Of a DNA stretch of 55,927 nucleotides, positions 396 through 55,927 are shown piece after piece (the stretch's first letter is position 1; each line of letters begins with the position of its first letter). Below the pieces are notes generated by a model, which was not told the origin of the DNA, ran no database searches, and saw nothing but the letters and a program-made list of their open reading frames with translations. Source of the DNA: a virus. Lineage: Duplodnaviria > Caudoviricetes. The DNA is taken from positions 1 through 55,927 of IMG/VR virus record IMGVR_UViG_3300042389_000953. One strand, 5' to 3'. Made by a program: the position numbers and the translations under genes.

Positions 396-607
396 AGGTC
401 CGAGGCATAACGGTAGTGTGATAGGGTCCTTCCTGGCCCCCCAGACCGCGAGGGGTTTCGAAGCGCAAATTATTCCTAGGCACGACGCTCAAAAGTTGTT
501 TCGATAGCACTAAAAACACACTTATCCCTACCCACAAAAAATCGAAAACCGGCCATGGTAGCACGGAAATCCACCCATGGCCTATAAGCAACGCTACAAT
601 CAGAAAC

Positions 608-1183
608 ATGGCACTGATTTCAAAGGCGGACGCGGCACGAGCCCTCGGCGTTACCAGTGAAGCGGTCTACGCAGCAATTCGTACAAACCGTCTATCGGTG
701 GTACGCACCGGGGACGGTCGTGAACTCGTAAATTCCGCCACCATGCGCGAGGAATGGGACCGCAACACCCAGAAACGCATCGGCCGCGGCCCTAAGCCCC
801 CTGCTGGAACGACCGAACGCACCCCTAAGCGGCCTGGGGAACTGACCCCCCAGGAGCGCCGCGATCAACAGGCCGATTCAGGCGGCAACCTGGCGGAAAC
901 CAACGAGGCCATACCCGATTACAACGAGTCCCGCGCCCGCACCGAGCACCTAAAAGCCGAGCTATTAGAGCTGGAACGCAAGGAAAAAGAGCGAATTTTG
1001 GTAAAAGCGGAGGAAGTTGAGGCCAAATGGGTCGAAATTATCACCATGGCCCGCACTAAGATTTTGGGTATCCCCACAAAGGCCAAACAGCGCATCCCCG
1101 ACCTCGACACCGACGCCATAAGCCTCCTCGACGACATCGTAAGAGAGACGCTGGAAGATCTCGCTGCTAAATCTGACGCCTAA
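608..1183 (+). CDS. terS: Terminase small subunit (Nu1-like)
   Basis: N-terminal HTH (ISKADAARALGVTSEAVYAAI), coiled-coil C-half, directly upstream of TerL. Confidence 0.85.
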   Translation: MALISKADAARALGVTSEAVYAAIRTNRLSVVRTGDGRELVNSATMREEWDRNTQKRIGRGPKPPAGTTERTPKRPGELTPQERRDQQADSGGNLAETNEAIPDYNESRARTEHLKAELLELERKEKERILVKAEEVEAKWVEIITMARTKILGIPTKAKQRIPDLDTDAISLLDDIVRETLEDLAAKSDA

Positions 1184-1193
1184 GTACTTACAC

Positions 1194-3062
1194 ATGGTAA
1201 CTACGCCGCTTAGCAGTATTGTTCGCCTGGAAAGTGCGGCGCTTAGCGCCTTCAAACCCCCGCGCCGCCTCACGCTTAGCGAGTGGGCCGACACCTACGC
1301 CTACCTCAGCGTCGAGAGCAGCGCCGAGGGTGGCCGCTGGCACACCCTCCCCTACCAGAAGGGGATCATGGACGCCATAAGTGATCCGCTAATTGAACAA
1401 GTAACCCTTATGAAGTCGGCACGTGTTGGCTACTCCAAAATCCTCAACCATGTAATCGCCTATCACATCCACCAAGACCCCTGCCCCCTGATGTTGGTGC
1501 AGCCCACCATCGAAGACGCGCAGGGCTATTCCAAGGAAGAAATCGCGCCCATGCTGCGCGACACCCCCTGCCTAGCCGGCCTCGTAAGCGACGCCAAAGC
1601 TAAGGACGGCGCCAACACGATCCTGCAGAAGCAATTTCCGGGTGGAACGCTAAGCCTTGTCGGGGCCAACTCGCCGCGGGGCTTCCGTCGTGTGAGCCGC
1701 CGCGTCGTCCTGTTCGACGAAACCGATGGCTACCCGCCCTCGGCTGGTACGGAGGGCGACCAAATCAAGCTCGGCATCCGCCGAACCGAGTATTACTGGA
1801 ACCGCAAAATCGTCGCCGGCTCCACCCCCACCATCAAGGACTTCAGCCGCATCGAGCGCCTCTTCGCCCAAGGCGATCAGCGCCGCTACTTCGTGCCCTG
1901 CCCCCACTGCAACCACATGCAGTACCTGCGTTGGGCTCAGATGACCTGGACCGACAACGACCCCTCCACCACCGCCTACAAGTGCGAATCCTGCAACGAA
2001 CTCATCCCACACTCTAAGAAGCGTTGGATGGTCGAACGCGGCGAATGGCGCTCCACAATCCCCGGCAACGGCAAGCACGTAAGTTTCCACATTTGGGCCG
2101 CCTACTCCTATTCCCCCAACGCCTCATGGTCTAATTTGGTCGAAGAGTTCTTGGAGTCGAAGAACGACGCCGAGCAACTAAAGACCTTCGTAAACACCGT
2201 CTTAGGCGAGGTCTGGGAAGATGAATACGCCTCCAAGATCGGCGCCTCCGCCCTGCTGGAACGCACCGCCAAGGAGACCTACCAAGCCCTCATCGTCCCC
2301 TCCTCCGCCCTGGCGCTCACGATCGGCTGCGACTGCCAGGACGACCGCCTAAGTCTCAGCGTCTGGGCGTGGGGACGCGAAGAGGAGGCGTGGCTCATCG
2401 ACCGCAGCAAACTCTACGGCGACCCCTCACGCCCCGACGTATGGAAACAACTCGACGAAGTATTAGCACGTCCATTCTTAAGCGAAGACGGAATTGACCT
2501 GCGAATTAGTGTGTGCGCAATCGACTCTGGCGGCCACCACACCGCCACCGTCTACGCCTACGCCCGCGACCGCGCCGCCCAGGGCGTCATCGCCATCAAA
2601 GGCATGTCCACTAAGGGCAAGCCACCAATCGGCAAGGCCAGCAAGGTCGATCTCAACCACAAAGGCCAAACCTTACGCAAAGGCGCCCAAGTATTCCCCG
2701 TAGGCTCCGACGCTATCAAATCGCTGCTATTCGGCCGCCTAAAACACAACGAACCCGGTCCCGGCTACCTCCACTTCCACGCCAAAACACCCCTCGACTA
2801 TTTTGAGGAACTAACTGCCGAAAAGCAGGTAATGCGCTACAAGAACGGCTACCCCCAGCGCGTCTGGGTAAAGAAGAGCAGCCAGCCCAACGAAGCCCTC
2901 GACGAACTCGTCTACGCCTACGCCTCCCTGCACCGCCTCTACCAGCTCTACGACCGCCGCACCATTTGGGAGCAGCTGGAACGCAAGCTCCGCCCCTCCC
3001 CCGACGACGCCCCCTCCCAACCCGCCCGCTCCTCCGCCGCCTTCAACGTCCTCGGCCGCTAA
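1194..3062 (+). CDS. terL: Terminase large subunit, lambda gpA family
   Basis: MKSARVGYS Walker A variant, VVLFDETD Walker B, STPT, CPHC..C..C, IDSGG, NEALD motifs. Confidence 0.96.
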   Translation: MVTTPLSSIVRLESAALSAFKPPRRLTLSEWADTYAYLSVESSAEGGRWHTLPYQKGIMDAISDPLIEQVTLMKSARVGYSKILNHVIAYHIHQDPCPLMLVQPTIEDAQGYSKEEIAPMLRDTPCLAGLVSDAKAKDGANTILQKQFPGGTLSLVGANSPRGFRRVSRRVVLFDETDGYPPSAGTEGDQIKLGIRRTEYYWNRKIVAGSTPTIKDFSRIERLFAQGDQRRYFVPCPHCNHMQYLRWAQMTWTDNDPSTTAYKCESCNELIPHSKKRWMVERGEWRSTIPGNGKHVSFHIWAAYSYSPNASWSNLVEEFLESKNDAEQLKTFVNTVLGEVWEDEYASKIGASALLERTAKETYQALIVPSSALALTIGCDCQDDRLSLSVWAWGREEEAWLIDRSKLYGDPSRPDVWKQLDEVLARPFLSEDGIDLRISVCAIDSGGHHTATVYAYARDRAAQGVIAIKGMSTKGKPPIGKASKVDLNHKGQTLRKGAQVFPVGSDAIKSLLFGRLKHNEPGPGYLHFHAKTPLDYFEELTAEKQVMRYKNGYPQRVWVKKSSQPNEALDELVYAYASLHRLYQLYDRRTIWEQLERKLRPSPDDAPSQPARSSAAFNVLGR

Positions 3063-5079: not shown

Positions 5080-8000
5080 ATGGCCAACGTCAACGGCACC
5101 GAGATCAACCTCATGCCCACCAAGGGGATGCGGGCCGAGGCCGAGCGCTACCGCGCCTGGAAGGCCGAGGGACGCAAAGGTGGCACCTCCGTAGCAGCCC
5201 GCCGCGCCACCCAAATCCTCAGCGGTAATGAGCTGAGCCCCGCCACCGTCATCACGATGTCCGCCTGGTTCGCTCGCCACGAAGTGGACAAGCAGGGCGA
5301 CGGCTACTCACCGGGCAGCCCCGCTTATCCGTCACCCGGCCGCGTCGCCTGGGCCGCCTGGGGCGGCGATCCCGGCAAGACCTGGGCCGACGCTAAGGCC
5401 AAAACCATAAAAAGCGCCACCGATAGACTGCACAACACAACAACTATGGCCGTGATGGACGCCACCGCCGATCAGCAACGCGAGCTGACGCCAGACCTTA
5501 CAGCTCCCCAAGTTGCGCTCTACGAAGCCTTGGAGGAAATTGTCGATGATCTCGGTCAGTTTGATCAGGGCATTGGCGCTCACGGCGCTCATTACATGCC
5601 TGTCAGCCCCTTCGCCAGCGAAGGGATGCAGTGCTCCAACTGCATCTTTTACGCCGGCCCTCGCGCTTGCGAAGTCGTCGCTGGCGACATCGCCCCCGAA
5701 GGCGCCTGCAAGTTCTGGATCATCCCAGAACAGCTGCTCACCCCCCAGGCTGACGCCTCAGCCGAAGGCCGTACCGCTACCTCTGCCGATGAAGTGCGCC
5801 TCGCCGCTAAGTCTGTGCGTGACTACGCAGCCCAACGCGCCGCAGCCGGCGAGCTGAGTGAGGGCGATTTCGTTGCCTGGCAGTCCAGCGGTGGCACGGC
5901 CCGCGGGCGCATCGAACACGTCATGCGTACCGGCACCCTCGGCGTCCCCGGCAGCGACTTCAGCATCGACGCCTCCGCCGACGACCCCGCCGCCCTGATT
6001 CGCATCTACCGCCCTAAGCAGGACGGCTGGAGCGAAACCGAAACCCTCGTCGGCCATAAGTTTTCGACGCTCCGCAAGATCGAGCCCCTCGACGAACCTT
6101 CGGACGACAGCGAAGACGACCGCAGCCTGGAACAGCGCCCTTACCCCAACGAACACGCTGCCCGCCTCTTAGACCCCGGCCAGTTCGACCGCTTCCGCCG
6201 CAAGAACAACGACTTCGCCCAAGGTATCGACTCCATTTACGGAATCAAAGGCGACGATCCCGTGCGCCTACAAGCCCTACGCTTCGACGCCGCACGCTTT
6301 ACAGTAAGTGAAGCTAAGAAGTGGCTTAGCGATCACGACTACACGCCCATCTCCTTTGAGCCCGCTACAGGCAAGTCCATGGACGGCAAAATCGACATCA
6401 AGGCCATCAGTAAGGAAGTGCTTAGGCGCGAAGCTCCGCAAGGTCTCCGCGTCGAAGAAAGCACCACTACGGGGCTTACCTTTAGCTTCAGCTCCGAGGC
6501 GCCCGTGGAGCGCTGGTGGGGCCGCGAGGTGCTGATGCACGATGACGGCGCCATGGACCTGGCCCGCATGAACGACGGCGGCCCCTGGCTCTGGAACCAC
6601 AACCGCGACGTGGTGCTCGGCGTCGCCGAAAAAGCCTGGCTTGGCGACGATCGCCGCCTCTACGTCAAAACGAAATGGAGCCCCAACACCACCGAAAAAG
6701 GCACCGAAGAATACAAGCGTCGTCGTGACATCGAAGCGGGCATCGTCCGCAACGTATCCTTCGCCTACGAGATCAACGATGTGCGCGAAGCATCCAACGG
6801 CGACATGCAAGTAGTGGGCTGGAACGTTCTGGAAGTCTCCTCAGTAAGCGTGCCCGCCGACCAGACCGTTGGCCTGGGCCGCGCACTCGACGACACCAAC
6901 ACATCTCCCACGCCACTTACGACGCAAGAAACAAATCAAGCGTCAACCCCTACACTAGAAACTAAGCAGACCGCCGAGCGCGGAGCTGACTTCCCCCAAG
7001 ATCCTCCATCCATGGAACAAGCCACCAACGTTCAGGAGGTCCAATCCGCCGCTCGGCAGTCCGAGCGTGAGCGTGTTGCGGCCATCCGCGCCATGTGCGC
7101 CCAGCACCAGATCGGCACCGATCTGGCTGACACCCTCATCGACAACGAATCCACCCTCGACCAAGCCCGCGAAGCCGTGCTGAACCAAATCGGACGCACC
7201 CGCGTCGAAGTCCAAGGTCGCGTCCATGACGACGACTCCGCCGCCCTCGGCCTCACCGACAAGGAAGTTCGCAGCTTCTCCTTCGTCCGCGCCCTCAACC
7301 ACCTCATCGCCCCCGGCGATCGCGCTGCCCGCGAAGCCGCCGCGTTTGAAATCGAGGTCGGCAAGGCTGCCGCCGAGAAGTATCAGCGCTCCTCCAACGG
7401 CATCGTCATCCCCAACGAAGTGCTCCGCCGCGACCTCGTGGTCGGCACCAGCACCGCCGGTGGCAACCTCGTCTCCACCGATCTGCTGAGCGGCAGCTTC
7501 ATCGACCTCCTGCGTAACCGCATGGCGATGATGCAAGCCGGCGTCACCATGCTGAGCGGCCTCCAAGGCAACGTAAGCATCCCGAAACAATCTTCCGCCG
7601 CGACCGCTTACTGGGTCGGCGAAAGCGGCTCACCCACCGAGAGCCAGCAGGCAATCGAACAGGTGAACATGACGCCCAAGACCGTGGGCGCCTTCGTCGA
7701 TTACAGCCGCCGCCTGCTGCTCCAGGCTTCGATCGACGTGGAGTCGATGATCCGTGCCGACCTGGCCAAGATCATCGCCCTTGAGCTGGACCGCGCTGCC
7801 ATCTACGGCACGGGCTCCACCAACCAGCCCCTCGGCCTGACCAACACCACCGGCATCGGCGCTCAGACGATCAGCACCTTTGGCACCTTCGCCGAGTACA
7901 TCGGCATGGAAACCGACGTGGCGACCGCCAACGCCGACGCCGGCTCGATGCGCTACATCATCAACGCCGCCGCCCGCGGTGCCCTCAAGAGCACCAGCGT

Positions 8001-8253
8001 CGCCGGCACCGAAGCCAAGTTCGTCTACGAGAACGACGAGATCAACGGCTACCCCGTGATCGTGAGCAACCAGCTCGGCAACAACGACTGCCTCTTCGGC
8101 GACTTCTCCCAGTTCGTCGTGGGCATGTGGTCCGGCCTCGACCTCACCGTCGATCCCTACGCCGGCTCCACCGCTGGCACGGTCCGCGTCATCGCCCTCC
8201 AGGACGTTGACTTCGCGGTCAAGCAACCTGGCGCCTTCTGCTTCGGCACCTGA
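5080..8253 (+). CDS. Fused multidomain prohead protease / scaffold / HK97-fold major capsid protein
   Basis: Protease motifs (FSSEAPV, LWNHN, NVSFAY, EVSSVSVPAD) mid-protein; capsid motifs (AYWVGE, TPKTVGA, GTGSTNQPLG, FGDFS) C-terminal; ~460 aa of extra N-terminal domains. Confidence 0.92.
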   Translation: MANVNGTEINLMPTKGMRAEAERYRAWKAEGRKGGTSVAARRATQILSGNELSPATVITMSAWFARHEVDKQGDGYSPGSPAYPSPGRVAWAAWGGDPGKTWADAKAKTIKSATDRLHNTTTMAVMDATADQQRELTPDLTAPQVALYEALEEIVDDLGQFDQGIGAHGAHYMPVSPFASEGMQCSNCIFYAGPRACEVVAGDIAPEGACKFWIIPEQLLTPQADASAEGRTATSADEVRLAAKSVRDYAAQRAAAGELSEGDFVAWQSSGGTARGRIEHVMRTGTLGVPGSDFSIDASADDPAALIRIYRPKQDGWSETETLVGHKFSTLRKIEPLDEPSDDSEDDRSLEQRPYPNEHAARLLDPGQFDRFRRKNNDFAQGIDSIYGIKGDDPVRLQALRFDAARFTVSEAKKWLSDHDYTPISFEPATGKSMDGKIDIKAISKEVLRREAPQGLRVEESTTTGLTFSFSSEAPVERWWGREVLMHDDGAMDLARMNDGGPWLWNHNRDVVLGVAEKAWLGDDRRLYVKTKWSPNTTEKGTEEYKRRRDIEAGIVRNVSFAYEINDVREASNGDMQVVGWNVLEVSSVSVPADQTVGLGRALDDTNTSPTPLTTQETNQASTPTLETKQTAERGADFPQDPPSMEQATNVQEVQSAARQSERERVAAIRAMCAQHQIGTDLADTLIDNESTLDQAREAVLNQIGRTRVEVQGRVHDDDSAALGLTDKEVRSFSFVRALNHLIAPGDRAAREAAAFEIEVGKAAAEKYQRSSNGIVIPNEVLRRDLVVGTSTAGGNLVSTDLLSGSFIDLLRNRMAMMQAGVTMLSGLQGNVSIPKQSSAATAYWVGESGSPTESQQAIEQVNMTPKTVGAFVDYSRRLLLQASIDVESMIRADLAKIIALELDRAAIYGTGSTNQPLGLTNTTGIGAQTISTFGTFAEYIGMETDVATANADAGSMRYIINAAARGALKSTSVAGTEAKFVYENDEINGYPVIVSNQLGNNDCLFGDFSQFVVGMWSGLDLTVDPYAGSTAGTVRVIALQDVDFAVKQPGAFCFGT

Positions 8254-37167: not shown

Positions 37168-37476
37168 CTACTTATCGAGCCAAAACGCCACACAATCCTT
37201 AGCGTGCTTACCGCCGCTGCGCTTGCCCTCGGGGAATCCCAGGCCGCACGATCCCTCGATGAACTGCCAGTGGATGCACTGCTGGCAGCGCGTTTTTCCA
37301 TTCGTCGCCACCAGGGCATCGGCGTAGAGCTGCTCGGCCTCCATAAGTGCCGTCTCCAGTTCCGTGCCACGCAAAGGCAGCTCCAGCACGCCCTGCTTCG
37401 TCTTAAGCCGCAGCATCCACCCCTCAGCCTGGGGGATCAGCACCATCCTGCCCGAGTGGTATCTGAGAGACGGCAT
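37168..37476 (-). CDS. Hypothetical protein with C-terminal Cys cluster
   Basis: CQQCIHW....C.LGFPE......C. Confidence 0.65.
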   Translation of the reverse strand: MPSLRYHSGRMVLIPQAEGWMLRLKTKQGVLELPLRGTELETALMEAEQLYADALVATNGKTRCQQCIHWQFIEGSCGLGFPEGKRSGGKHAKDCVAFWLDK

Positions 37477-38919: not shown

Positions 38920-39138
38920 TTACTCTTGGCCTGGTTCAAGCAGCTTTACAGTTCGTCGCCTTCCAGCCTTTTCGATCCACCGGAAAGCATCGCTGGGTAG
39001 GAGCAGCTCAGGCGCCTGGAGCGTGTACCAGCGGTGCTCACACGCTTGGCAATGCCTCCTTCTTACGATCTGATCACCATCGGCATAAGCCGTCATAACA
39101 ACGCTATTGCGCTGGCACGCACATCCTGGGCATCGCAT
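38920..39138 (-). CDS. NrdR-like zinc-ribbon protein lacking the ATP cone
   Basis: MRCPGC....V......IVRRRHC..C..RW.T. Confidence 0.75.
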   Translation of the reverse strand: MRCPGCACQRNSVVMTAYADGDQIVRRRHCQACEHRWYTLQAPELLLPSDAFRWIEKAGRRRTVKLLEPGQE

Positions 39139-42010: not shown

Positions 42011-42358
42011 TCAGACGGGGCAGGCCGCCTCAGCCTTAGCTTCAGCCTTGGCCTTGGGCTTACGGCCGCGCTTGGCGTCGGTCTCGGGGGGCTTCGGACC
42101 AGCAATCAGGTAGCAGCCGGTGCCATCCGCCTTCTTACGCACGGAGAATTTCACCGTGGTCGAGTTGGCAGTCATCGTGCCAGCCACCTGGCTGATGGTG
42201 GTGGCGCGGTAGCCGGCCTCGGCGTCGTGCGTGTCATAGGCGACCTCGATGGCCTCACCGACCTGCAGAGCGGCAAGCGCATTCCGCAGCGGGGTCGTTT
42301 TCGATGTGCGCGTGGCACGGCCCGGCAAATCCGCAGCCGACAGAACAGAGAACGTCAT
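42011..42358 (-). CDS. Basic hypothetical protein, possibly DNA-binding
   Basis: Lys/Ala-rich tail AKRGRKPKAKAEAKAE. Confidence 0.65.
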   Translation of the reverse strand: MTFSVLSAADLPGRATRTSKTTPLRNALAALQVGEAIEVAYDTHDAEAGYRATTISQVAGTMTANSTTVKFSVRKKADGTGCYLIAGPKPPETDAKRGRKPKAKAEAKAEAACPV

Positions 42359-45124: not shown

Positions 45125-47622
45125 AGCTCCTCCGCCTCCCGCCGCAGCCGCTCCAGCTCCTCGACGCTCCGCTCAGTGGGCTCAGCGAGCCTCGCGCGTA
45201 TAGTTTCCGTATCTGTCCCATCAGGGCCACTTCGCTTGCGCTGCAACGGCTTTGCAATGGGACACACTTCCTCTTTTTCGGGAAGTGTCCCATCTGTCGT
45301 ACCAGCACCGCTCACGTTTTCCACAACCACACCCTCACCTGTGGAAAACTCCTCATCGCTAATGGGACACACCCCCTCGTTTTCACCCCCCTGTCCCATT
45401 GCAGAATCCGTTCCAGCACAAGGATTTTGCCCTATGGGACACGTTCTACCTACTTCTACGCGCGAGGAACTTAAAACCGCCTGGTAATGGTGGAGCGCCT
45501 TACCCCCTTTCTCGGCCTGAGTCTTATCTGCGACACAGATGAGACCGCGCTTCTCCAAGCGCTGCAGCGCCTTCCTGATCGCTGTGACCCTGCCGCCCAC
45601 GATCGGATCGGCGTTCAGCTCTGCCCTGGTACGCGCCTCGGGGTAGATCACGCGCAACCGCGCCAGCACGCGGTCGGTGATGGCGCTGGGGCCTGTCTCC
45701 GCTGGATCGACCTCTGGCACGTAGTCGCTGAGGGTGAAGGTCAGGTCGTCTTCCAGCTTCAGCAGCAGCCCTGTGCCCCCACGACCGCTCCGCGACTTCT
45801 CGATGGCTATGAGACGCGCATTCGCCCCCACAGCCTCCTGCTGGCGCTCTGAGGGCCGTTTCAGCGCCCACACCTCATCCACGGCATCCCTAATTGCCGA
45901 AGTCCCCCTAAAGCCGCCCTGCTTATTCGCGTGGTGAATAATTACGATGGTTGCTGCCGGAAACAGCACACCATTATTTCGCGTAAGCCAATACAGCGGC
46001 GTAGCAAAATCACTCTTGTTCTCATCGAACGCCTTACCACCACTACACCCAATAAGCGAATCAATCACCACAAGGCTTGGCCGTAGCTCCTCCATAAGGC
46101 TTATGAACTGGGCGTAGCGCTGGAGCGCCCAGTCGGTGCGGATCGTGACCGGCGCGTGAGCGGGCATCTCGACCTCCTGGAGCTGCTCCTGGAGCTGCAC
46201 CAGCGGCTGGTCGCCGTTCAGCAGCAACACAGGCCCCTGCTGGACCGGCACATGCTTCCCGCGAATGACGAACGGCAGCCCCATCGCAACATGCTTCGCC
46301 ATCGTCCACGCCGCCATTGACTTACCATCGCCACCAGCCCCATAAATGAGTACAACAGACGGGCTAGGCAGCAGATCAGGAATGAGGTACTTACGCTCAA
46401 ACTCCTGCTCCATAAGTTGCGCGATCGACATGGTATCTGTCTGACCCTCGTACTGGATCTGATCAACCAGCAACCGCTCCAGCGCCTCCTTATCCCTATA
46501 CCCCGACTCCACCGCCAGCGCGTGCATCTTGTAATTCAGTTCCGCCGGATTATCAATCTGCAACACCTCCTTAGCCCGCCTAATTACTTCGGCGAAGTCG
46601 AGTACGACATGGCGGTAAGCCTGAGCCTGTGTGCTCTCGACCTCCTCAAGCGTTGCCCTGCTGGAGTCCTGAAATCGCAACCTCCCTGGGTCGTACTCAT
46701 CCGCCAGCTTCACCAAGCTGCCCAGCCCCAGGTTCCCCGGCTTCCCGACCCGCTCCACAAGGCGCGGCCACTTCTCCTCGCACGGGTTCCCCTTCGTCCA
46801 GTCGTCTTCAAACGCCGGGTCTTGCTCGCTCCATGCCGTCCACAGCGCCAAGCCCATCTCACTTGGCAGCGCCTCAGCCACCATCGCGCCGATCTGCCAC
46901 CACTGATCCTCACTCCCCCTGCCCAGGTGGGGCATGACCTGCAGGCAGTCGTGAACGATCTCTGCAACCTCATCGCTGGTCCGACCCGAGAAGTCCAGGC
47001 CGCGGCGATTCTTCACCAGGCCCTGCACCGGCGCATCCGCCTGCTTCCGCGCCCGCATCTCAGCGAGCAACCACTCCGGCGCATCGGGAATCGCATCAAA
47101 GCTCCCCGAAACCAGCTTGTAGTGCCCCGGCTTGGCCTTACCGTCCCTCGACCCCGGATAAGCACCGGCAATTACGCCCTGCATCCCCCATAAGATTTCG
47201 TAGCCGCTGTTTCCTTGGCTAAGCGTCATACCGCGCACTAAGGCGCGTTGATCGGCTGGCACGCGAAAAACGAACTTGGCCGCATTCGGTTTTGTGCTTC
47301 GCACTTGCGGAGCATCGGCAATGGAATCGCCCCACTTCTTAAGCAGCGCAGCAAGATTCGCATCGACATCCAGAATTACGATGCCGTCGCTGCGGATGCC
47401 TGTGAACAGGCCCACGGCCTGGAACGTCTCGGGCTTCTGCTCCAGCAGCAACGCCACATCCTCCGGGTTGAACCGGCGGTGGTGGGACGCCTCATGTGGC
47501 GCCTTCCCTTGGCTCTCCGACTCGTGCTTCCCGAACTTGACCCCTTTGGCGTAGATGGGGGCGTAAGCGGGGCCTACAGGCAGTGTTCGCACGAAGCGAA
47601 TCAGCCCTTGGTGCGTGTTCAT
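45115..47622 (-). CDS. Primase-helicase (prim-pol + PriCT-2 + AAA_25/RecA-like ATPase)
   Basis: ILDVD; W.QIG.M....W..WS; GAGGDGKS, VVIDS, IIHHANK..RGTSAI. Confidence 0.9.
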   Translation of the reverse strand: MNTHQGLIRFVRTLPVGPAYAPIYAKGVKFGKHESESQGKAPHEASHHRRFNPEDVALLLEQKPETFQAVGLFTGIRSDGIVILDVDANLAALLKKWGDSIADAPQVRSTKPNAAKFVFRVPADQRALVRGMTLSQGNSGYEILWGMQGVIAGAYPGSRDGKAKPGHYKLVSGSFDAIPDAPEWLLAEMRARKQADAPVQGLVKNRRGLDFSGRTSDEVAEIVHDCLQVMPHLGRGSEDQWWQIGAMVAEALPSEMGLALWTAWSEQDPAFEDDWTKGNPCEEKWPRLVERVGKPGNLGLGSLVKLADEYDPGRLRFQDSSRATLEEVESTQAQAYRHVVLDFAEVIRRAKEVLQIDNPAELNYKMHALAVESGYRDKEALERLLVDQIQYEGQTDTMSIAQLMEQEFERKYLIPDLLPSPSVVLIYGAGGDGKSMAAWTMAKHVAMGLPFVIRGKHVPVQQGPVLLLNGDQPLVQLQEQLQEVEMPAHAPVTIRTDWALQRYAQFISLMEELRPSLVVIDSLIGCSGGKAFDENKSDFATPLYWLTRNNGVLFPAATIVIIHHANKQGGFRGTSAIRDAVDEVWALKRPSERQQEAVGANARLIAIEKSRSGRGGTGLLLKLEDDLTFTLSDYVPEVDPAETGPSAITDRVLARLRVIYPEARTRAELNADPIVGGRVTAIRKALQRLEKRGLICVADKTQAEKGGKALHHYQAVLSSSRVEVGRTCPIGQNPCAGTDSAMGQGGENEGVCPISDEEFSTGEGVVVENVSGAGTTDGTLPEKEEVCPIAKPLQRKRSGPDGTDTETIRARLAEPTERSVEELERLRREAEELWK

Positions 47623-47819
47623 GCGCTACAATCCTATGCGTGAAGAGGCATCGCGCCCCTCGACAGCCCAGCTGTGAGGGGCGTTTTTCACTGTAAGCCC
47701 TTGGCCTTGAAAGCGCAACGATGTACTACGCCATGGGTTGCCAGCCGTGCTACGCTGCGTAAGCACTCGGCACCGCCCCTCCGGGCACCGCCTCCTGCAT
47801 CCACACCCCACAACCTCTT

Positions 47820-48398
47820 ATGGGACTCCTTTCCAAGACCGCCCAAGCCGCCGTCGCTGGCGGTGGCGCCTACCTGAACCCCGGCAAGATCGCCGCGGGC
47901 TCGGCCGTCCGCTTCTGCCTGCTCAGCGAAGAACCGCTTGAGTTCTACGAGTGCTGGGGCGAAGGCGCCGACGGCAAGGCCAAACCCTTCCGCTTCGACT
48001 CCGAGCCCAGCCCCGACGACATCGCGCTGGCCATGGGCGACTTCAAGCGCCGCATGAACCGCGAGGGCAACGGCTTTGAGGCTGTCAAGTTCTGTCTCGC
48101 CATCCCCTGCTACAACTTTGAGGCAGCTCAGGTGCAAGTCCTGCAGCTCAGCCAGAAGTCGATCATCCGCGAACTCGACGCGGTAAGCCAGATGGAGGAC
48201 TACTCCGACATCCTGGCCATCGACTTCCTGCTCGGCAAGGAGGGCAGCGGCCTGAACACCGAATACAAGCTCACCCCCGTCCCCCGCAAGAAGGGTGCCG
48301 ACAAGGCCATCGCCGAAGCCTGGGAAGAGACCCGCTCCGCCGGCTTCGACATCAGCAGGCTGCTGGACGGCGCCGATCCCTTCAAGCCCGCCGAATAA
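47820..48398 (+). CDS. Putative single-stranded DNA-binding protein
   Basis: GG.YLNP.K...VRF, KP.RF, Q.SI..EL, TEYKL.P.P, DPF end; next to exonuclease. Confidence 0.7.
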   Translation: MGLLSKTAQAAVAGGGAYLNPGKIAAGSAVRFCLLSEEPLEFYECWGEGADGKAKPFRFDSEPSPDDIALAMGDFKRRMNREGNGFEAVKFCLAIPCYNFEAAQVQVLQLSQKSIIRELDAVSQMEDYSDILAIDFLLGKEGSGLNTEYKLTPVPRKKGADKAIAEAWEETRSAGFDISRLLDGADPFKPAE

Positions 48399-48496
48399 GC
48401 TGCGGCACCGCTAAGCGTAAGCTGCTGCACACATAAGCTGATGTGCGGTAGATTCACCCTTACGCTTAGTTGGGTATGAGTACGCATGAGGAGTAA

Positions 48497-49378
48497 GTGT
48501 TGCACCACTTACTCCTTTTTTGTGTAAGCTGTTACAGCTACGTTGCGTTGCTGTCGTTGTCCACTCTTGATCCCACCGAAGCACTAAGCGGCTTAGCTAA
48601 GTGGAAGCTGGAGCGTGACGACGAAAGTGACCCTAATGGGCGTATTTACCGCGATAAGCAGGGTGAAATTTACCATAGCGTTACCCGTATTCTTAAAGAG
48701 ACCAGTAATAGCAAGGCGGCGTTGGAAGCTTGGGCCGCCCGCTTAGGCGAAGAACGCGCCGCCCAGGAGCGCGACACCGCAGCGCAACGCGGCACGCTCA
48801 CCCACAACTGCGCCGAGTACCTGCTGCGCACCGCCAAGCGCATGGCCGACTCCACCGCTAAGCGCCGCAACTCCTGGTACACGAAATCAGACGGCCTAGG
48901 CCGCGCTCCGGCTCCTCTCACCAGATGGGCACTTACCCAGGTGCTGCCCAGCGTCCCTAAGGCCGGTCTTAGTGCTGCCGGCTATCGCCGCGGCTTGCTC
49001 GGCTGGATAAGCGAAAACGTAACCGCAATCCACGCCATTGAATTTAGCGTGCATCATCCTGCAGGTTTCGCCGGCACCTGCGACGGACTAATCGACTATA
49101 AAGGTAAGGGGCCTTTCGTCGCAGACTGGAAAACCTCCTTCAACAAACGCTCCGAAGAACTCCTTACCGACTACACCGACCAGATCGGCGCCTACAGCCT
49201 CGGCCTACGCCACCTAACCGGCATCCAAGCCGTAGGCGGCCTCATCGTCGTAGCACGCCGCGCCGGTAAGCCGGATGTGCGCGAACTAAGCGCCTTGGAA
49301 GTGCGTGGCGCCGAATGCCGCTACTTAGAGCGCTGCGAAGCCTACTTCGATGCGTTGCATAAGCAGCTAAGCAGCTGA
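48497..49378 (+). CDS. PD-(D/E)XK exonuclease (Cas4/RecB-like); true start probably downstream
   Basis: HSVTRIL, RGT..H, FAGTCD.L, DWKTS, Q..AY. Confidence 0.88.
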   Translation: MLHHLLLFCVSCYSYVALLSLSTLDPTEALSGLAKWKLERDDESDPNGRIYRDKQGEIYHSVTRILKETSNSKAALEAWAARLGEERAAQERDTAAQRGTLTHNCAEYLLRTAKRMADSTAKRRNSWYTKSDGLGRAPAPLTRWALTQVLPSVPKAGLSAAGYRRGLLGWISENVTAIHAIEFSVHHPAGFAGTCDGLIDYKGKGPFVADWKTSFNKRSEELLTDYTDQIGAYSLGLRHLTGIQAVGGLIVVARRAGKPDVRELSALEVRGAECRYLERCEAYFDALHKQLSS

Positions 49379-49480
49379 GCGGTTGCGCAGCGTACGGCGA
49401 TAAGTCTTGTCACCTAAAATGGTTGGAGCTGCGGCGTAACAGCGCCCAGCTCCCGGATCACTCACCGAAATTGAGCAACC

Positions 49481-50427: not shown

Positions 50428-51120
50428 ATGGCTCGCACAATCGAGTTCGACGTGGAGCGCATCTTCCGTAAGCTGAATGTGCTGGAAGGTACGCAGATCA
50501 AATACGCCGCTAAGCGGACCATGGCTCGCTTCGGCTATGAGGCCCGCGAGTACCTTGTAATGAAGATGGTAGGTAGCTTTAAGAATCCCGTTGACTACAC
50601 ACTACAGTCACCGCTATACGATAAGCAGCTAATTGAAACACCTAACAGCGTCGCCGTAAGATTATACATTAGCACTGATAGCTCTAAAGGTAATGCGCCA
50701 ACCTCCTACCTTTACCCGGTGGATCGCGGTAGCGCATCCAACGAGGCCTACTTAGGCCGCTTTGCACGCGGCTTGGCTAAGACTGGCGTAACGACTAAGT
50801 TTCCGGTGCCGTATAAGCAAGGTTCTAAAGTACAGCGCAATAAATTCGGCAATATGGAAGGTAGCCAGTACCAAGAGGTGCTAAAAGCGGTGCAGCGGAA
50901 AGGTGGAACGATCTTCGCCCTGCCGAACGGCTCCCCAGGCGGCCTGCTGCCTCCCGGCATCTACAAACGCGAGGGCCGATCCGCCTTCCTCCTCTTCGCG
51001 CTCCTCAACAGCACTCCTACCGTCTACTCCCCATTCGACTCCTACAACGCCGTCCGCCTTCTGGCCAACCAACGCCTCCCTAAGCTGATAGGCGAAGAAC
51101 TGGCCAAAGCCCTGCGCTAA
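50428..51120 (+). CDS. Basic phage protein, possibly neck/minor tail (gpZ-like)
   Basis: Q..YA....M..., F.NP..YT, N.FGN, GIY.R pattern. Confidence 0.5.
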   Translation: MARTIEFDVERIFRKLNVLEGTQIKYAAKRTMARFGYEAREYLVMKMVGSFKNPVDYTLQSPLYDKQLIETPNSVAVRLYISTDSSKGNAPTSYLYPVDRGSASNEAYLGRFARGLAKTGVTTKFPVPYKQGSKVQRNKFGNMEGSQYQEVLKAVQRKGGTIFALPNGSPGGLLPPGIYKREGRSAFLLFALLNSTPTVYSPFDSYNAVRLLANQRLPKLIGEELAKALR

Positions 51121-51252
51121 GCTGCGCCGCTAAGCTGCGCCGCTGCGCTGCTGCGCCGCTTAGCTTACGTTTTACAACACCCCTTACACGACCCCTTACC
51201 CCGCTTCAGCTTACGTGTGCTACGCTTACTCGTGTTCAACCCCTTAGCACCG

Positions 51253-52044: not shown

Positions 52045-52446
52045 ATGTCCTTAGCTCGTCAGCTCTATCCAAACGCCTTTCAGCGTAAGTACCAGCGCAT
52101 TGACAATTACGAACCCATAATCAACCATTTAGGCAAACCCTTAGTACACACAGACACAGATCCTTATCAAGGAGACGCGCTAGTCCTACTTCGCACAGAT
52201 ACCGGCTACGGCTTTCTTGTATTCGGTTATGGCAGCTGCTCAGGTTGCGACGCCCTGCAAGCCTGCGATTCCTACGAAGACTTAGAGTCTTTAATCGACG
52301 ACCTTATCGCGTCCATGAAAACCTTCGACACCTTGGCCGATGCGCAACTTCACATCGCAAACAACAACTACCACGAATTGCGCTACCATTACCATCTAAA
52401 GGAATGGCAGGAGTTTCGCTCCGCCTGCCTAAGCCTCGACGCCTAA
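52045..52446 (+). CDS. Hypothetical phage protein
   Basis: YQGD...GYGSCSGCD motif. Confidence 0.7.
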   Translation: MSLARQLYPNAFQRKYQRIDNYEPIINHLGKPLVHTDTDPYQGDALVLLRTDTGYGFLVFGYGSCSGCDALQACDSYEDLESLIDDLIASMKTFDTLADAQLHIANNNYHELRYHYHLKEWQEFRSACLSLDA

Positions 52447-52501
52447 GCCTCGACGCCTAAGCCGCGGCACTGCCCCACACCACGTACCCACACTTAGTCT
52501 C

Positions 52502-53403: not shown

Positions 53404-53712
53404 ATGCCGCGCCTCCTTACCCGCCACCAACTGCTAAGCCTCTACTACACCATCCCCACCACCTCCACTTACGAAGACCGCTTAGTCGCCTATGGCAATG
53501 CGGTCCAGTCCTGGCTAAGCAGCCCCGAATCGGAAGATCCGCGCAGCCCGCTCTCCTCCCTCTGCTTACCGCAGCGCATTTACGGCGCCCTCCGCCGCGC
53601 CGGCTACACCTACGTCGATGACGTGCGCAACGCCACCGACGCCCAACTGCTCAGCGCCCGCGACTTCGGCCCTAAGGGGTTGCGCCTGCTCCGCCAAGCG
53701 CTAAGCGGCTAA
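53404..53712 (+). CDS. Protein with RNA polymerase alpha-CTD-like domain
   Basis: L..L.L..R.Y.AL.RAG...V.D......L....FG.K.L..L..AL. Confidence 0.75.
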   Translation: MPRLLTRHQLLSLYYTIPTTSTYEDRLVAYGNAVQSWLSSPESEDPRSPLSSLCLPQRIYGALRRAGYTYVDDVRNATDAQLLSARDFGPKGLRLLRQALSG

Positions 53713-53859
53713 GCGGCTAAGAGGCGGTGGAACGCTCACCGCTGAGCCTGTGTTACAAAATCTTACGTGGCCTGGCTGTCCAGCCTAAGTGGGCGGCGAT
53801 GCCTTAATGTACTTGCACAGCGCACCAATAGCGCTCCCCCACCCCTTCACTTAAACACC

Positions 53860-54990
53860 GTGACTTACCTGCTCACCAACCAGGCCACCCACTCCGACAC
53901 CACCGAGGCCCGCAGGGTCTCACGGATGCAGCGCCACGAGATCACCAGCGGCTACAGCCGTGACCGCCACCTCCTGCTCACCTCGCCGCCGCAGATCGCA
54001 CTGCAGGCCGGTGGTACGCCCATCGGCCCCGACGCCACACCCCGCCAAGCCTTCGCCGCAGCCGGCGCCGACTTCGCCGTAAGCGCGAAGCCGATCGCAT
54101 TCGACAACGCTGTCGAGTACGGCGGCGATGCCCCTGAGTCCGACTGGCGCTGCGTAAGCAGCCACAAGGCGATCGTCCGCGAGGACATCGGCCGCTGCCT
54201 GGGCATTGTGGGTCGTAATTACACCCCCGTTCAGAACGAAGCGCTCATCGGCCTCTTCGACTTCCTGCACGAAGACGCCAAGATCGACAACATCGTCACC
54301 CTGCGCCACGGCGCTAAGACGATCGTGACCGCATCCCTGGCGATCGAAGGTGAGGTGAAAGAGGGCGACACCATCCGCCGCTACCTGCACGCCTTCAACA
54401 GCTTCGACGGCAGCAGCAGCCTTGGCGTGTTCTTCAGCGACATGCGCATGGTCTGCAGCAACCAGATCTCTTACATCACCGGCAAGGGCGCCCGCAAAGC
54501 CTCCAAGGCTGGCGAGGGCCTGCTGATGCGCCACACCTCCGGTGTGCAGGAGTTCGCCAAGCGACTGCCCCAGCTCATCGACCTGCAGAACCGCTGCTTT
54601 GAGCAAGACCTCGCCGAGCTGCGCCCCCTCACCACCATGCGCCTCACCACCGAGGCGGCCCGCGCCATCCTTGAGGCCACCTTTGCCGACAAGCTGAGCA
54701 CCCCCGTCACCGACAAGGACAGCGGCAAGAAGCGCCAGCGCACCCTCGACGACCTCACCGAAATCCCCCTCATCCGTTCCCACTACGGCAAGGGCACCGG
54801 CATCGGCATCGACACCGCCGACAAGTCCGTCTGGAACATGCTCCAAGCCATCACCCAGAACCAAACCCACGACCTGGGCCGCGGCGCCACCGACCTGGAC
54901 CGTGCCCGTGCCCGCCTGGAATCCCTCTGGGGCGGCGACTCCGCCAAGCGCATCGCCCGCGCTAAGCAGGCGTGTCTCGCCGCTATCTAA
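53860..54990 (+). CDS. DUF932/DUF945-family phage/plasmid protein; start uncertain
   Basis: LGIVG..YTPVQN, NSFDGSS, R.VCSN, RHT, W....A.T....H. Confidence 0.85.
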   Translation: MTYLLTNQATHSDTTEARRVSRMQRHEITSGYSRDRHLLLTSPPQIALQAGGTPIGPDATPRQAFAAAGADFAVSAKPIAFDNAVEYGGDAPESDWRCVSSHKAIVREDIGRCLGIVGRNYTPVQNEALIGLFDFLHEDAKIDNIVTLRHGAKTIVTASLAIEGEVKEGDTIRRYLHAFNSFDGSSSLGVFFSDMRMVCSNQISYITGKGARKASKAGEGLLMRHTSGVQEFAKRLPQLIDLQNRCFEQDLAELRPLTTMRLTTEAARAILEATFADKLSTPVTDKDSGKKRQRTLDDLTEIPLIRSHYGKGTGIGIDTADKSVWNMLQAITQNQTHDLGRGATDLDRARARLESLWGGDSAKRIARAKQACLAAI

Positions 54991-55054
54991 GCCGTAGCGC
55001 TGCTTAGCCGCAGCGCTACTTAGCCGCAGCGCTGCTTAGCCGCAGCGCTACTTA
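54991..55054. repeat. 16-bp tandem repeat GCCGYAGCGCTRCTTA x4
   Basis: Read directly. Confidence 0.92.
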
Positions 55055-55082
55055 GCCCCACTTACCCCTCGCCCTACCAACC

Positions 55083-55370
55083 ATGTCTACGTCCCTCCTC
55101 TACTTAGCCGACCACTTCACCTACGAGCAGCGCATAAGCCCGCCGCCGACCGCCTACGGCCGCACCGCCTCGGGCTACGGCAACAGGATCGCCACCGATT
55201 GGCTGGTACGCATAAGCGGCAGCACTGGTACGCAGCCCGCTCTCTACGGCGGCGACTGCCGCTGGCGCCGCGTCTACGCGACCTGCTGGAGCAACTCCGC
55301 CTCCCTCTGGGTAAACGTGCCGGGGCATCGCTTCTACTTCCGCGACTGCGACCTAAGCCACACGGCGTAA
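55083..55370 (+). CDS. Hypothetical phage protein
   Basis: TASGYG.RI.T...RRVY..CWSN motif. Confidence 0.65.
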   Translation: MSTSLLYLADHFTYEQRISPPPTAYGRTASGYGNRIATDWLVRISGSTGTQPALYGGDCRWRRVYATCWSNSASLWVNVPGHRFYFRDCDLSHTA

Positions 55371-55629
55371 AACGCTGGTACGACAGCGCTCCACTAAGCC
55401 TGGAGCGCTAAGCTAATAAGTTTTAAGTTGCGCTTGGAAAAATTTGAGACATGCGCACTGCCGGTTCTTTAAGCAAAATTTTACGCACGCCTAAGCCGAA
55501 AAATTTAGGAACTTGCGGGGGGTCGGTTCTTAAGGCACTTTTTCACACACACAAACTTACACAACTTCTCGCACCCCCTCACCCACTCCGGCAGCGAGGC
55601 GGCGCCCCGCGCCCCCACAGCTCCCGCCG

Positions 55630-55724
55630 TGTACACCTGTACTATAGTACAAGTGTACGCTAGTACAGCCGTACCTATAGTACAGCCGTACCGTAGTACA
55701 GCCGTACGCTAGTACAGCCGTACT
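55630..55724. promoter_or_regulatory. Array of 12 GTAC at 8-bp period (LexA-box-like GTAC-N4-GTAC)
   Basis: GTAC at 55631, 39, 47, 55, 63, 71, 80, 88, 96, 55704, 12, 20; the repeat is certain, the function inferred. Confidence 0.55.
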
Positions 55725-55776
55725 GCCCCTGCCGGCCCATGCGGTCATGCCGGTAGCGTTATAAGGGGTTAGGTAG

Positions 55777-55927
55777 GCTAACCCGCTGAGAGTTAGGTGA
55801 GCTAACCCGCTGAGAGTTAGGTGAGCTAACCCGCTGAGAGTTAGGTGAGCTAACCCGCTGAGAGTTAGGTGAGCTAACCCGCTGAGAGTTAGGTGAGCTA
55901 ACCCGCTGAGAGTTAGGTGAGCTAACC
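55777..55927. repeat. 24-bp tandem repeat GCTAACCCGCTGAGAGTTAGGTGA x6.3 (runs off the right edge)
   Basis: Exact copies; each contains CTAAC-N9-GTTAG inverted repeat. Confidence 0.97.

Follow-up and report, generated by a model that had tools for sequence, protein, structure and literature searches.

Why would a phage in which no repressor or integrase is evident carry a dense row of sites resembling cyanobacterial SOS operators in a stretch that holds no genes? The row lies at 55629..55725 of a viral IMG/VR record that was analyzed in its entirety and is called the window here (55,927 bases, CheckV 100% complete, classed as 'linear'). A preliminary description, made from the letters of the sequence, had likened it to tandem cyanobacterial LexA boxes and had proposed either a switch controlled by host LexA or a LexA sponge, with replication iterons as the alternative.

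Structure of the array and its match to the cyanobacterial LexA box

Twelve GTAC words lie between 55631 and 55720 (starts at 55631, 55639, 55647, 55655, 55663, 55671, 55680, 55688, 55696, 55704, 55712, and 55720). They follow each other in 8-bp steps with a single 9-bp step, from 55671 to 55680, just as had been described. The word AGTACAAGTGTACG occupies 55646-55659, and four copies of AGTACAGCCGTAC are found, at 55662, 55679, 55695, and 55711. Tandem Repeats Finder called a period of 16 for the array (5.8 copies) together with periods of 33 and 8, indicating that the true repeat unit is 16 bp, and once 17 bp, rather than 8 bp. Each unit consists of TAGTACAGCCGTAC and 2-3 variable bases. Repeat calling, with consensus and matrix scores, delimited six such LexA-box-like units, which abut and have no assigned strand: U1 (55629-55644), U2 (55645-55660), U3 (55661-55676, followed by one linker base at 55677), U4 (55678-55693), U5 (55694-55709), and U6 (55710-55725). 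Units 3-6 are almost identical.

The operator arrays of RHH proteins (MetJ-type, ParG-type) are built from equivalent 8-bp units and go with a cognate RHH or partition protein. Here the units alternate, giving a period of 16 bp, and their flanks are distinct; no RHH, ParA, or ParB family was detected in the window with Pfam or PHROGs. Restriction avoidance was also considered and dropped because GTAC is undepleted in the window, where 186 copies were counted against 162.4 +/- 11 in shuffles; 174 of these lie outside the array in ~55.8 kb, or ~1 per 320 bp.

The array was also found in contigs from independent lake metagenomes, which break inside the repeats so that none spans the whole stretch. 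A 1-base deletion and point changes distinguish the lake populations within it, and one of the point changes falls within a GTAC core. The variant lacking base 55676 restores the regular 16-bp phase.

The picocyanobacterial LexA box has been given as TAGTACA-N2-TGTACTA (Kolowrat et al. 2010, PMC2921402) and, by Li et al. 2010, as AGTACWNWTGTACT, with a table that lists 48 predicted sites (PMC3091678). The latter paper also quotes the Anabaena box of Mazon et al., RGTACNNNDGTWCB. The portions of this literature that were used cover Prochlorococcus and marine Synechococcus (PMC2921402, PMC3091678). Scanning of the window with RGTACNNNDGTWCB returned four matches, all within the array (one on the + strand and three on the - strand); 0.45 would be expected by chance, and four were reached in 0/100 shuffles. 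The preliminary description had counted one fully matching site and had the AGCC-spaced sites deviating. This holds on the + strand only; when the - strand is read, three of the four units with the AGCC spacer match in full, so that four of the six units conform to RGTACNNNDGTWCB. The two remaining units have C or T at position 1 of this pattern, as do recA boxes of Synechococcus, predicted in marine strains to be of the form CGTAC-N3-TGTACT (PMC3091678, Table 1). Read on the - strand, the units take the form [A/C/G]GTACGGCTGTACT, identical at 13 of 14 positions to the predicted recA box of WH8102. When compared to the 16-mer TAGTACANNTGTACTA, U1 to U6 agreed at 12, 12, 11, 11, 11, and 12 of 14 positions, respectively, and four units carry a C where this consensus has a T ahead of the second GTAC. 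By this stricter measure, the units of the window are degenerate.

A weight matrix was then tallied from those 24 rows of the PMC3091678 table that concern Prochlorococcus and marine Synechococcus. Both strands of the window were scanned, and the six units proved to be the six top sites of the genome, with scores of 15.6-18.4 of 22.8 bits (five of the six best on the - strand) and 12.3 for the best site elsewhere. In 30 random genomes, the best score with this matrix averaged 13.7 and never exceeded 17.4. The likeness to cyanobacterial LexA boxes was thus closer than originally supposed, and the array has the sequence expected of a cyanobacterial LexA operator. We consider it probable that the six units are operators bound by host LexA.

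For the genes from head to tail tube, the window has counterparts at 40-60% amino-acid identity in Synechococcus phage S-LBS1, and its tail-tip/host-specificity, endolysin, HNH, and sigma genes are held in common with cyanophage KBS-S-2A. We infer a Synechococcus or Cyanobium host. Among the 24 sequencing runs listed, 19 contained at least half of the sampled words, and all were lake or freshwater metagenomes, which speaks to habitat only.

The gene-free region between the early genes and cos

Examination of the window with Pfam and PHROGs revealed a late block on the + strand, from 608 to ~36176, that encodes terS, terL, a lambda-type portal, a capsid-protease fusion, tail proteins, and endolysin. 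A leftward block on the - strand (~36.5-47.6 kb) encodes a sigma-70-family factor, dNMP kinase, PolA, and a primase-helicase, and a rightward block on the + strand (~47.7-55.4 kb) has among its products an SSB-like protein, an exonuclease, and a ligase domain, along with an RNA-polymerase alpha-CTD-like ORF, a DUF932 protein, and a 95-aa ORF. Most of the phage ORFs were assigned no function by Pfam or PHROGs. The earlier remark that no phage repressor or integrase is evident was borne out among the 64 ORFs scanned with these two collections, in which no CI-type repressor, S24 peptidase, integrase, or partition protein was found. The LexA DNA-binding domain, PF01726, gave 0 matches at E <= 0.001 in the six frames of the window.

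Several other features of the gene complement were recorded. The ORF at 53404-53712 has a match to the RNA-polymerase alpha C-terminal domain (PF03118), the ORF at 38920-39138(-) encodes a 72-aa NrdR-type zinc ribbon, and in the ORF at 5080-8253 a TUDOR-like domain, prohead protease, and major capsid protein are fused in a product of 1057 aa. Short tandem repeats built on a TAAGC/CTTAGC core (48396-48438, 49360-49380, 51115-51144, 52427-52463, 53696-53725, and 54981-55057) run across the stop codon of each of six consecutive genes in the rightward early operon, whose ORFs end at 48398, 49378, 51120, 52446, 53712, and 54990; these repeats might be intercistronic signals.

The array is situated between the last early gene and cos/terS, with the nearest gene more than 250 bp away on either side. 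Upstream is the 95-aa ORF that ends the rightward early operon (55083..55370, + strand; phrog_3436). The first gene of the late operon encodes the terminase small subunit (608..1183, + strand; phrog_57, E 9.8e-22) and is followed by that for the large subunit (1194..3062, + strand; PF05876, PF20454), which is of the lambda gpA type that packages from cos sites. No convincing ORF was found in 55371-55927 or in 1-607, and at least eight different tandem arrays are packed into these stretches. Neither this region nor the first 20 kb of the window gave a similarity match in the phage collection.

Ahead of the array, on the + strand, lies the element ACTTGCGGGGGGTCGGTTCTTAAGG (55511..55535), which is unique in the window. 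Its 18-base core recurs in 24 related IMG/VR loci, with 1-3 copies of the element per locus, and it may be a late promoter or a regulator site. A degenerate second copy ending in CGGTTCTTTAAGC could be read at 55450..55474 (+ strand), and, by eye, a T-run followed by ACAC repeats comes after the element at 55538..55553 (+ strand) in the window as well as in most relatives. Simple scans for a sigma-70-type promoter or a terminator in 54900-55927, 1-700, and 47400-48000 found none.

Beyond the array, Tandem Repeats Finder identified a 24-base tandem array without assigned strand (55768..55927, 6.7 copies) that has a GTTAGGTG core and runs off the end of the contig. Relatives L166, L169, and L214 likewise have repeats of this core downstream of the boxes, suggesting a second conserved set of protein sites. 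Unrelated arrays called by the same program at the other end of this gene-free region comprise a 14-mer repeated five times (1-72), 7-mers (80-161), a 34-mer with 3.7 copies (189-314), and a 33-mer with 2.3 copies (347-422).

The cos site was placed at 437..451 (no strand), with the left end of virion DNA at base 451 (AGGGGTTTCG...). Among 80 relatives found through TerS, the contigs of 46 start exactly at the base-451 motif and those of two more within 1-2 bases of it; in L007 and L058, a remnant of sequencing adapter directly precedes the motif. The shared contig starts and the adapter remnants identify base 451 as the physical left end, 157 bp upstream of terS. The contig of the window reads through the joined ends, and its layout therefore differs from that of virion DNA, in which the array would be upstream of cos and near the mature right end. 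The two ends of the window do not abut, as a metagenome contig (run X1) continues for up to ~450 bases past the 24-mer array (55905 onward) with sequence unlike the start of the window, and the record thus lacks part of the repeat region between its ends. The distance from array to cos, more than 650 bp, is for this reason a lower bound.

A cosB-type role for the array is not in keeping with these positions, as the array is on the other side of cos from terS and at the distance just given. The array is also absent from three complete relatives whose TerS proteins are 61-66% identical to that of the window, which again argues against such a role.

Conservation in relatives and in other phage lineages

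The 18-base core of the upstream element returned 26 IMG/VR loci, of which 24 were retained after two chance matches in coding sequence were dropped. A box was scored where at least 11 of 14 positions agreed with the 16-mer within 1 kb downstream of the element. By this measure, 18 of the 24 relatives have 1-9 boxes at the same place as the window, the first of them 60-150 bp downstream of the element. These modules contain 85 boxes, compared to one in the other 87 kb of the same loci. The consensus of the 85 boxes, TAGTACA[T/A][T/A]TGTACTA, equals the published 16-mer at all 14 fixed positions, and many of the relatives' boxes match the consensus at 14/14, better than do the host sites given in Table 1 of PMC3091678. 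When short GTAC-GTAC steps were tallied with no spacing imposed, 67 of 101 were 8 bp; the remaining listed steps were of 9 bp (five), 16 bp (16), and 17 bp (five). The N4 spacing, on whose conservation in related phages the preliminary description had staked its proposal, is kept.

At least three boxes are present in 13 of the 24 relatives and one or two boxes in five. No box was found in the other six, three of which are complete genomes, and the function of the array is therefore dispensable. Scans of five whole genomes of relatives detected boxes only in the module (two in G004 and four in G005), with none at all in three. Stretches rich in AT were seen in the modules of relatives. A search for relatives based on the DUF932 protein yielded one locus, which ends before the array.

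Another reading is that only one or two of the boxes have a function, the row of six having arisen as a neutral expansion by slippage in a repeat-prone end region. The near-identity of units 3-6 could reflect a recent expansion, at least seven other unrelated tandem arrays crowd the same 1.2 kb, the lake populations vary within the array, and some boxes are decaying in close relatives (L162 and L165 versus L155). However, arrays of several boxes recur in relatives and, with different spacer letters, in the other lineages described below, which points to repeated independent build-up or retention, and the 16-bp phase has been kept. In addition, just one of seven population variants falls in a GTAC core, the cores making up half of the bases, a weak signal by our own binomial estimate (P ~0.06). 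We regard neutral expansion as an unlikely explanation of the array.

Five relatives represented by long, mostly complete records share with the window the packaging and head genes, endolysin, HNH, dNMP kinase, and two small ORFs, and the upstream element is conserved in them at the DNA level. The same five lack the window's PolA, primase-helicase, sigma factor, and tail tip. Retention of the element alongside different replication genes indicates that the module travels with the late structural genes rather than with the replication genes, which argues against an origin for the window's initiator. The module fits the control region of a single long late operon. As a separate observation, the only unannotated early ORFs common to all five relatives compared are the small ORFs at 37168-37476(-) and 42011-42358(-).

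These comparisons also address the possibility that the units are sites for a phage protein, either replication iterons or sites of a late regulator, that merely resemble LexA boxes. The 16-bp direct repeats are iteron-like, other iteron-like arrays occur in the region, an AT-rich stretch accompanies the boxes in relatives, and the many phage ORFs of no known function leave room for a cognate protein. Nevertheless, the consensus of the 85 boxes equals the published host box at its 14 fixed positions, and the boxes occur in relatives that lack the PolA and primase-helicase of the window, are missing from three complete relatives, and appear in cyanophage-like contigs of other types (see below). 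Nor was any window ORF exclusive to box-bearing genomes when three such genomes were compared to three box-less ones, and no protein was common to all lineages within 2 kb of the arrays, as judged from stop-to-stop six-frame ORFs with many overlapping-frame matches. The iteron alternative of the preliminary description has lost ground in particular, given the box-less complete relatives and a module that goes with late rather than replication genes. We judge it improbable that the units are sites for a phage protein of either kind. A gene of phrog_1924 that often precedes the module was considered as encoding the box binder and was rejected, as it occurs in box-less relatives too.

Other short palindromes accompany the boxes in some relatives. 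In L094, L130, L147, L150, L154, L158, and L171, one to three 7-1-7 palindromes, TGAGAATNATTCTCA, are found beside the LexA-like boxes. In Enterococcus faecalis, the identical 15-mer is given as the Fur box of an operon for an iron transporter (PMC6056675), suggesting that a second host repressor has its sites within this module. The Fur-type palindrome TGAGAATNATTCTCA is absent from the window. In L167, a 16-base unit is repeated 11 times in tandem with GAAC rather than GTAC as its second half-site; these units could be a variant box or serve a different binding protein. The 17-kb contig L214, with a module near-identical to that of L169, was found in a genome bin labelled Gammaproteobacteria, probably a binning error, although this label is the sole external hint to the host.

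When two abutting boxes were sought as an exact pattern of 22 fixed bases, 46 viral loci were recovered, eight of which carry a motif like the upstream element. In 16 of the 46, as read from their sequences, one box is combined with two abutting boxes on contigs of up to ~75 kb. The layout in this group (L248, L251, L258, L261, L266, L267, L271, L272, L276, L277, L279, L281, L284, L285, L262, and L286) is one box, a gap of ~20 bp, two abutting boxes of the AGTACGCCTGTACT type, and then other short palindromes; some of the contigs are 65-75 kb long. For one contig of the group, the only match to a phage isolate was Synechococcus phage S-CBS4. Three of the 46 loci are on contigs bearing thyX, including L121. 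These matched 90 phage records, of which 86 are named Synechococcus, Prochlorococcus, or 'Cyanophage', three 'Marine', and one 'uncultured'. A further fragment, L114, matched large cyanophage (myovirus) genomes in 250 of 250 records.

Other scans were less informative. Two perfect abutting boxes were found at 69 loci in the genomes of 185,579 species, none of them cyanobacterial, and nearly all were (AGTACTNN)n repeats that fit the pattern. A scan for five phased GTAC words gave 62 loci, mostly plain 8-base tandem repeats with chance GTAC. The array of L137, when searched alone against the phage collection, had no match, possibly owing to low-complexity filtering. No box cluster was detected in nine isolated cyanophages (S-LBS1, KBS-S-2A, S-CRES2, S-CBS4, S-SKS1, S-SRM01, DSL-LC03, S-TIM54, and S-H25).

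In L114, the boxes lie 22 bp downstream of a TTGACA-N17-TAGAAT promoter and are followed by a hairpin and T-run terminator, and promoter, three boxes, and terminator would together produce a transcript of ~85 bases. Such an arrangement raises the question of whether the array acts as RNA or as single-stranded DNA, its string of small hairpins being a small RNA, a processing site, or a priming signal. Each unit of the window is self-complementary, and the folded array had z = -3.25, with 0/200 shuffles folding equally well. This z-score does not discriminate, however, since any palindrome array folds well; moreover, the units of the window pair through only 4-5 bp each, and an Rfam search of the array region gave no match above chance. 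The pattern of conservation, with fixed half-sites and free spacers, is that of protein sites. A role as RNA or single-stranded DNA is accordingly very improbable.

Proposed role of the array and known LexA-controlled phages

The considerations above suggest the possibility, which we favor tentatively, that the array is a set of host-LexA operators that gate late transcription, with titration of the repressor as a side effect or an alternative. The six operators for the host SOS repressor would stand in a control region heading the single late operon. LexA dimers would fill the six 16-bp units and, at a center spacing of 16 bp (~1.5 helical turns), neighboring dimers are expected to lie on opposite faces of the DNA. 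Occupied units would block rightward transcription that starts from the upstream element, or that reads through from the early operon, and that would otherwise cross the joined cos into terS and the head, tail, and lysis genes. We infer this direction of effect, as well as a promoter. A fall in LexA would lift the block and turn the late genes on; LexA might fall by RecA-driven self-cleavage after DNA damage or, alternatively, by dilution over many replicated phage genomes. Titration of LexA off host promoters would be a likely side effect. The binder would be a host factor rather than a phage factor, an argument that we base on the presence of boxes in other cyanophage types, the lack of a LexA domain in the window, and the lack of a box-specific ORF.

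Titration could also be the whole function. As a pure LexA sponge with no target in cis, the multiplying phage sites would draw LexA off host promoters and turn the SOS genes on, so that recA, ssb, and the repair polymerases of the host would be switched on for the phage. This is in line with the failure to find a promoter or a nearby gene in the window, with a box copy number that ranges from one to nine among relatives as for a dosage trait, with the many relatives' boxes that surpass the host sites of PMC3091678 Table 1 in their match to consensus, and with the Fur-box-like palindromes beside the boxes in relatives, which fit a general trap for host repressors. On the other hand, the first box keeps to 60-150 bp after a conserved element, which fits an operator better than a free decoy, the one or two boxes of five relatives are too few for titration, and the boxes are promoter-proximal in L114 and L121. 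We think a pure sponge unlikely, but titration and gating of the late genes are compatible and not exclusive.

A broader version of the trap idea is that several unrelated cyanophage lineages independently gathered operators of consensus strength for global host repressors, LexA and in some relatives a Fur-type protein, into arrays free of genes that act as transcription-factor traps. We hold this to be rather doubtful. If it were true, multiplying phage DNA would drain the repressors, the SOS and iron regulons of the host would come on, and the late genes would be timed in cis, amounting to a copy-number clock that also reads host stress. In the laboratory, the Fur titration assay exploits a strong operator in multicopy to derepress a regulon. 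We know of no natural case in which a phage titrates a repressor with operators that it carries, and none was found in a search of literature outside the subscription journals. Within the same coverage, no description of LexA boxes on cyanophage genomes was found, nor any paper with the 16-mer.

In E. coli, the operators of colicin and other SOS genes have adjacent LexA dimers on paired or overlapping boxes, giving tight repression and late relief. The E. coli operators have two or three sites, compared to six in the window, and the E. coli box, CTG(TA)5CAG as quoted in PMC3091678, is unrelated in sequence to the boxes of the window. The SOS boxes of picocyanobacteria at recA, lexA, umuC, and umuD, so far as given in PMC2921402 and PMC3091678, are the same 14-16-bp word, GTAC-N4-GTAC with TA/A and T/TA flanks. 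In Table 1 of PMC3091678, however, those host sites stand singly, 16-172 bp ahead of a start codon, whereas the phage array consists of six abutting units in a gene-free region.

By analogy, the closest known system is the switch of GIL01, a tectivirus of Bacillus thuringiensis in which host LexA acts on tandem boxes that include those at the late promoter P3 (Fornelos et al. 2018, PMC6182141). As far as the available account of GIL01 goes, the two phages are alike in lacking a repressor of their own while carrying tandem boxes for host LexA, which in the window are predicted. They differ in that GIL01 has two boxes about two helical turns apart in a mapped promoter, whereas the window has six at 16-bp spacing and no mapped promoter. 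GIL01 also employs the corepressor gp7 and the LexA-like activator gp6, whereas no LexA-like domain (PF01726) was found in the window. Finally, GIL01 is a temperate linear plasmid, and the window shows no sign of lysogeny, with no partition or integration genes by Pfam or PHROGs. Host LexA operators on phages are known, for instance from GIL01; new here is the predicted form, conserved arrays with as many as nine abutting consensus boxes that recur in several lineages of seemingly non-temperate cyanophages.

Much of the photosynthesis in aquatic environments is due to picocyanobacteria, whose phages are regarded as strictly lytic. The array belongs to the question of how infection by such phages is adjusted to light, UV, and nutrient stress. 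Abutting 16-bp boxes are a simple search key, which recovered 46 viral contigs here, and offer a route to predicting the cyanobacterial hosts of uncultured phages. By way of the array, the phage probably senses or soaks up a stress signal of its host. If LexA operators gate the late genes, host DNA-damage signalling would be linked directly to the timing of a phage that has neither integrase nor repressor, and operators at the head of the late genes may bear on delayed or carrier-type infections. If the arrays titrate LexA, a virus would be reprogramming a regulon of its host with DNA sites rather than with proteins.
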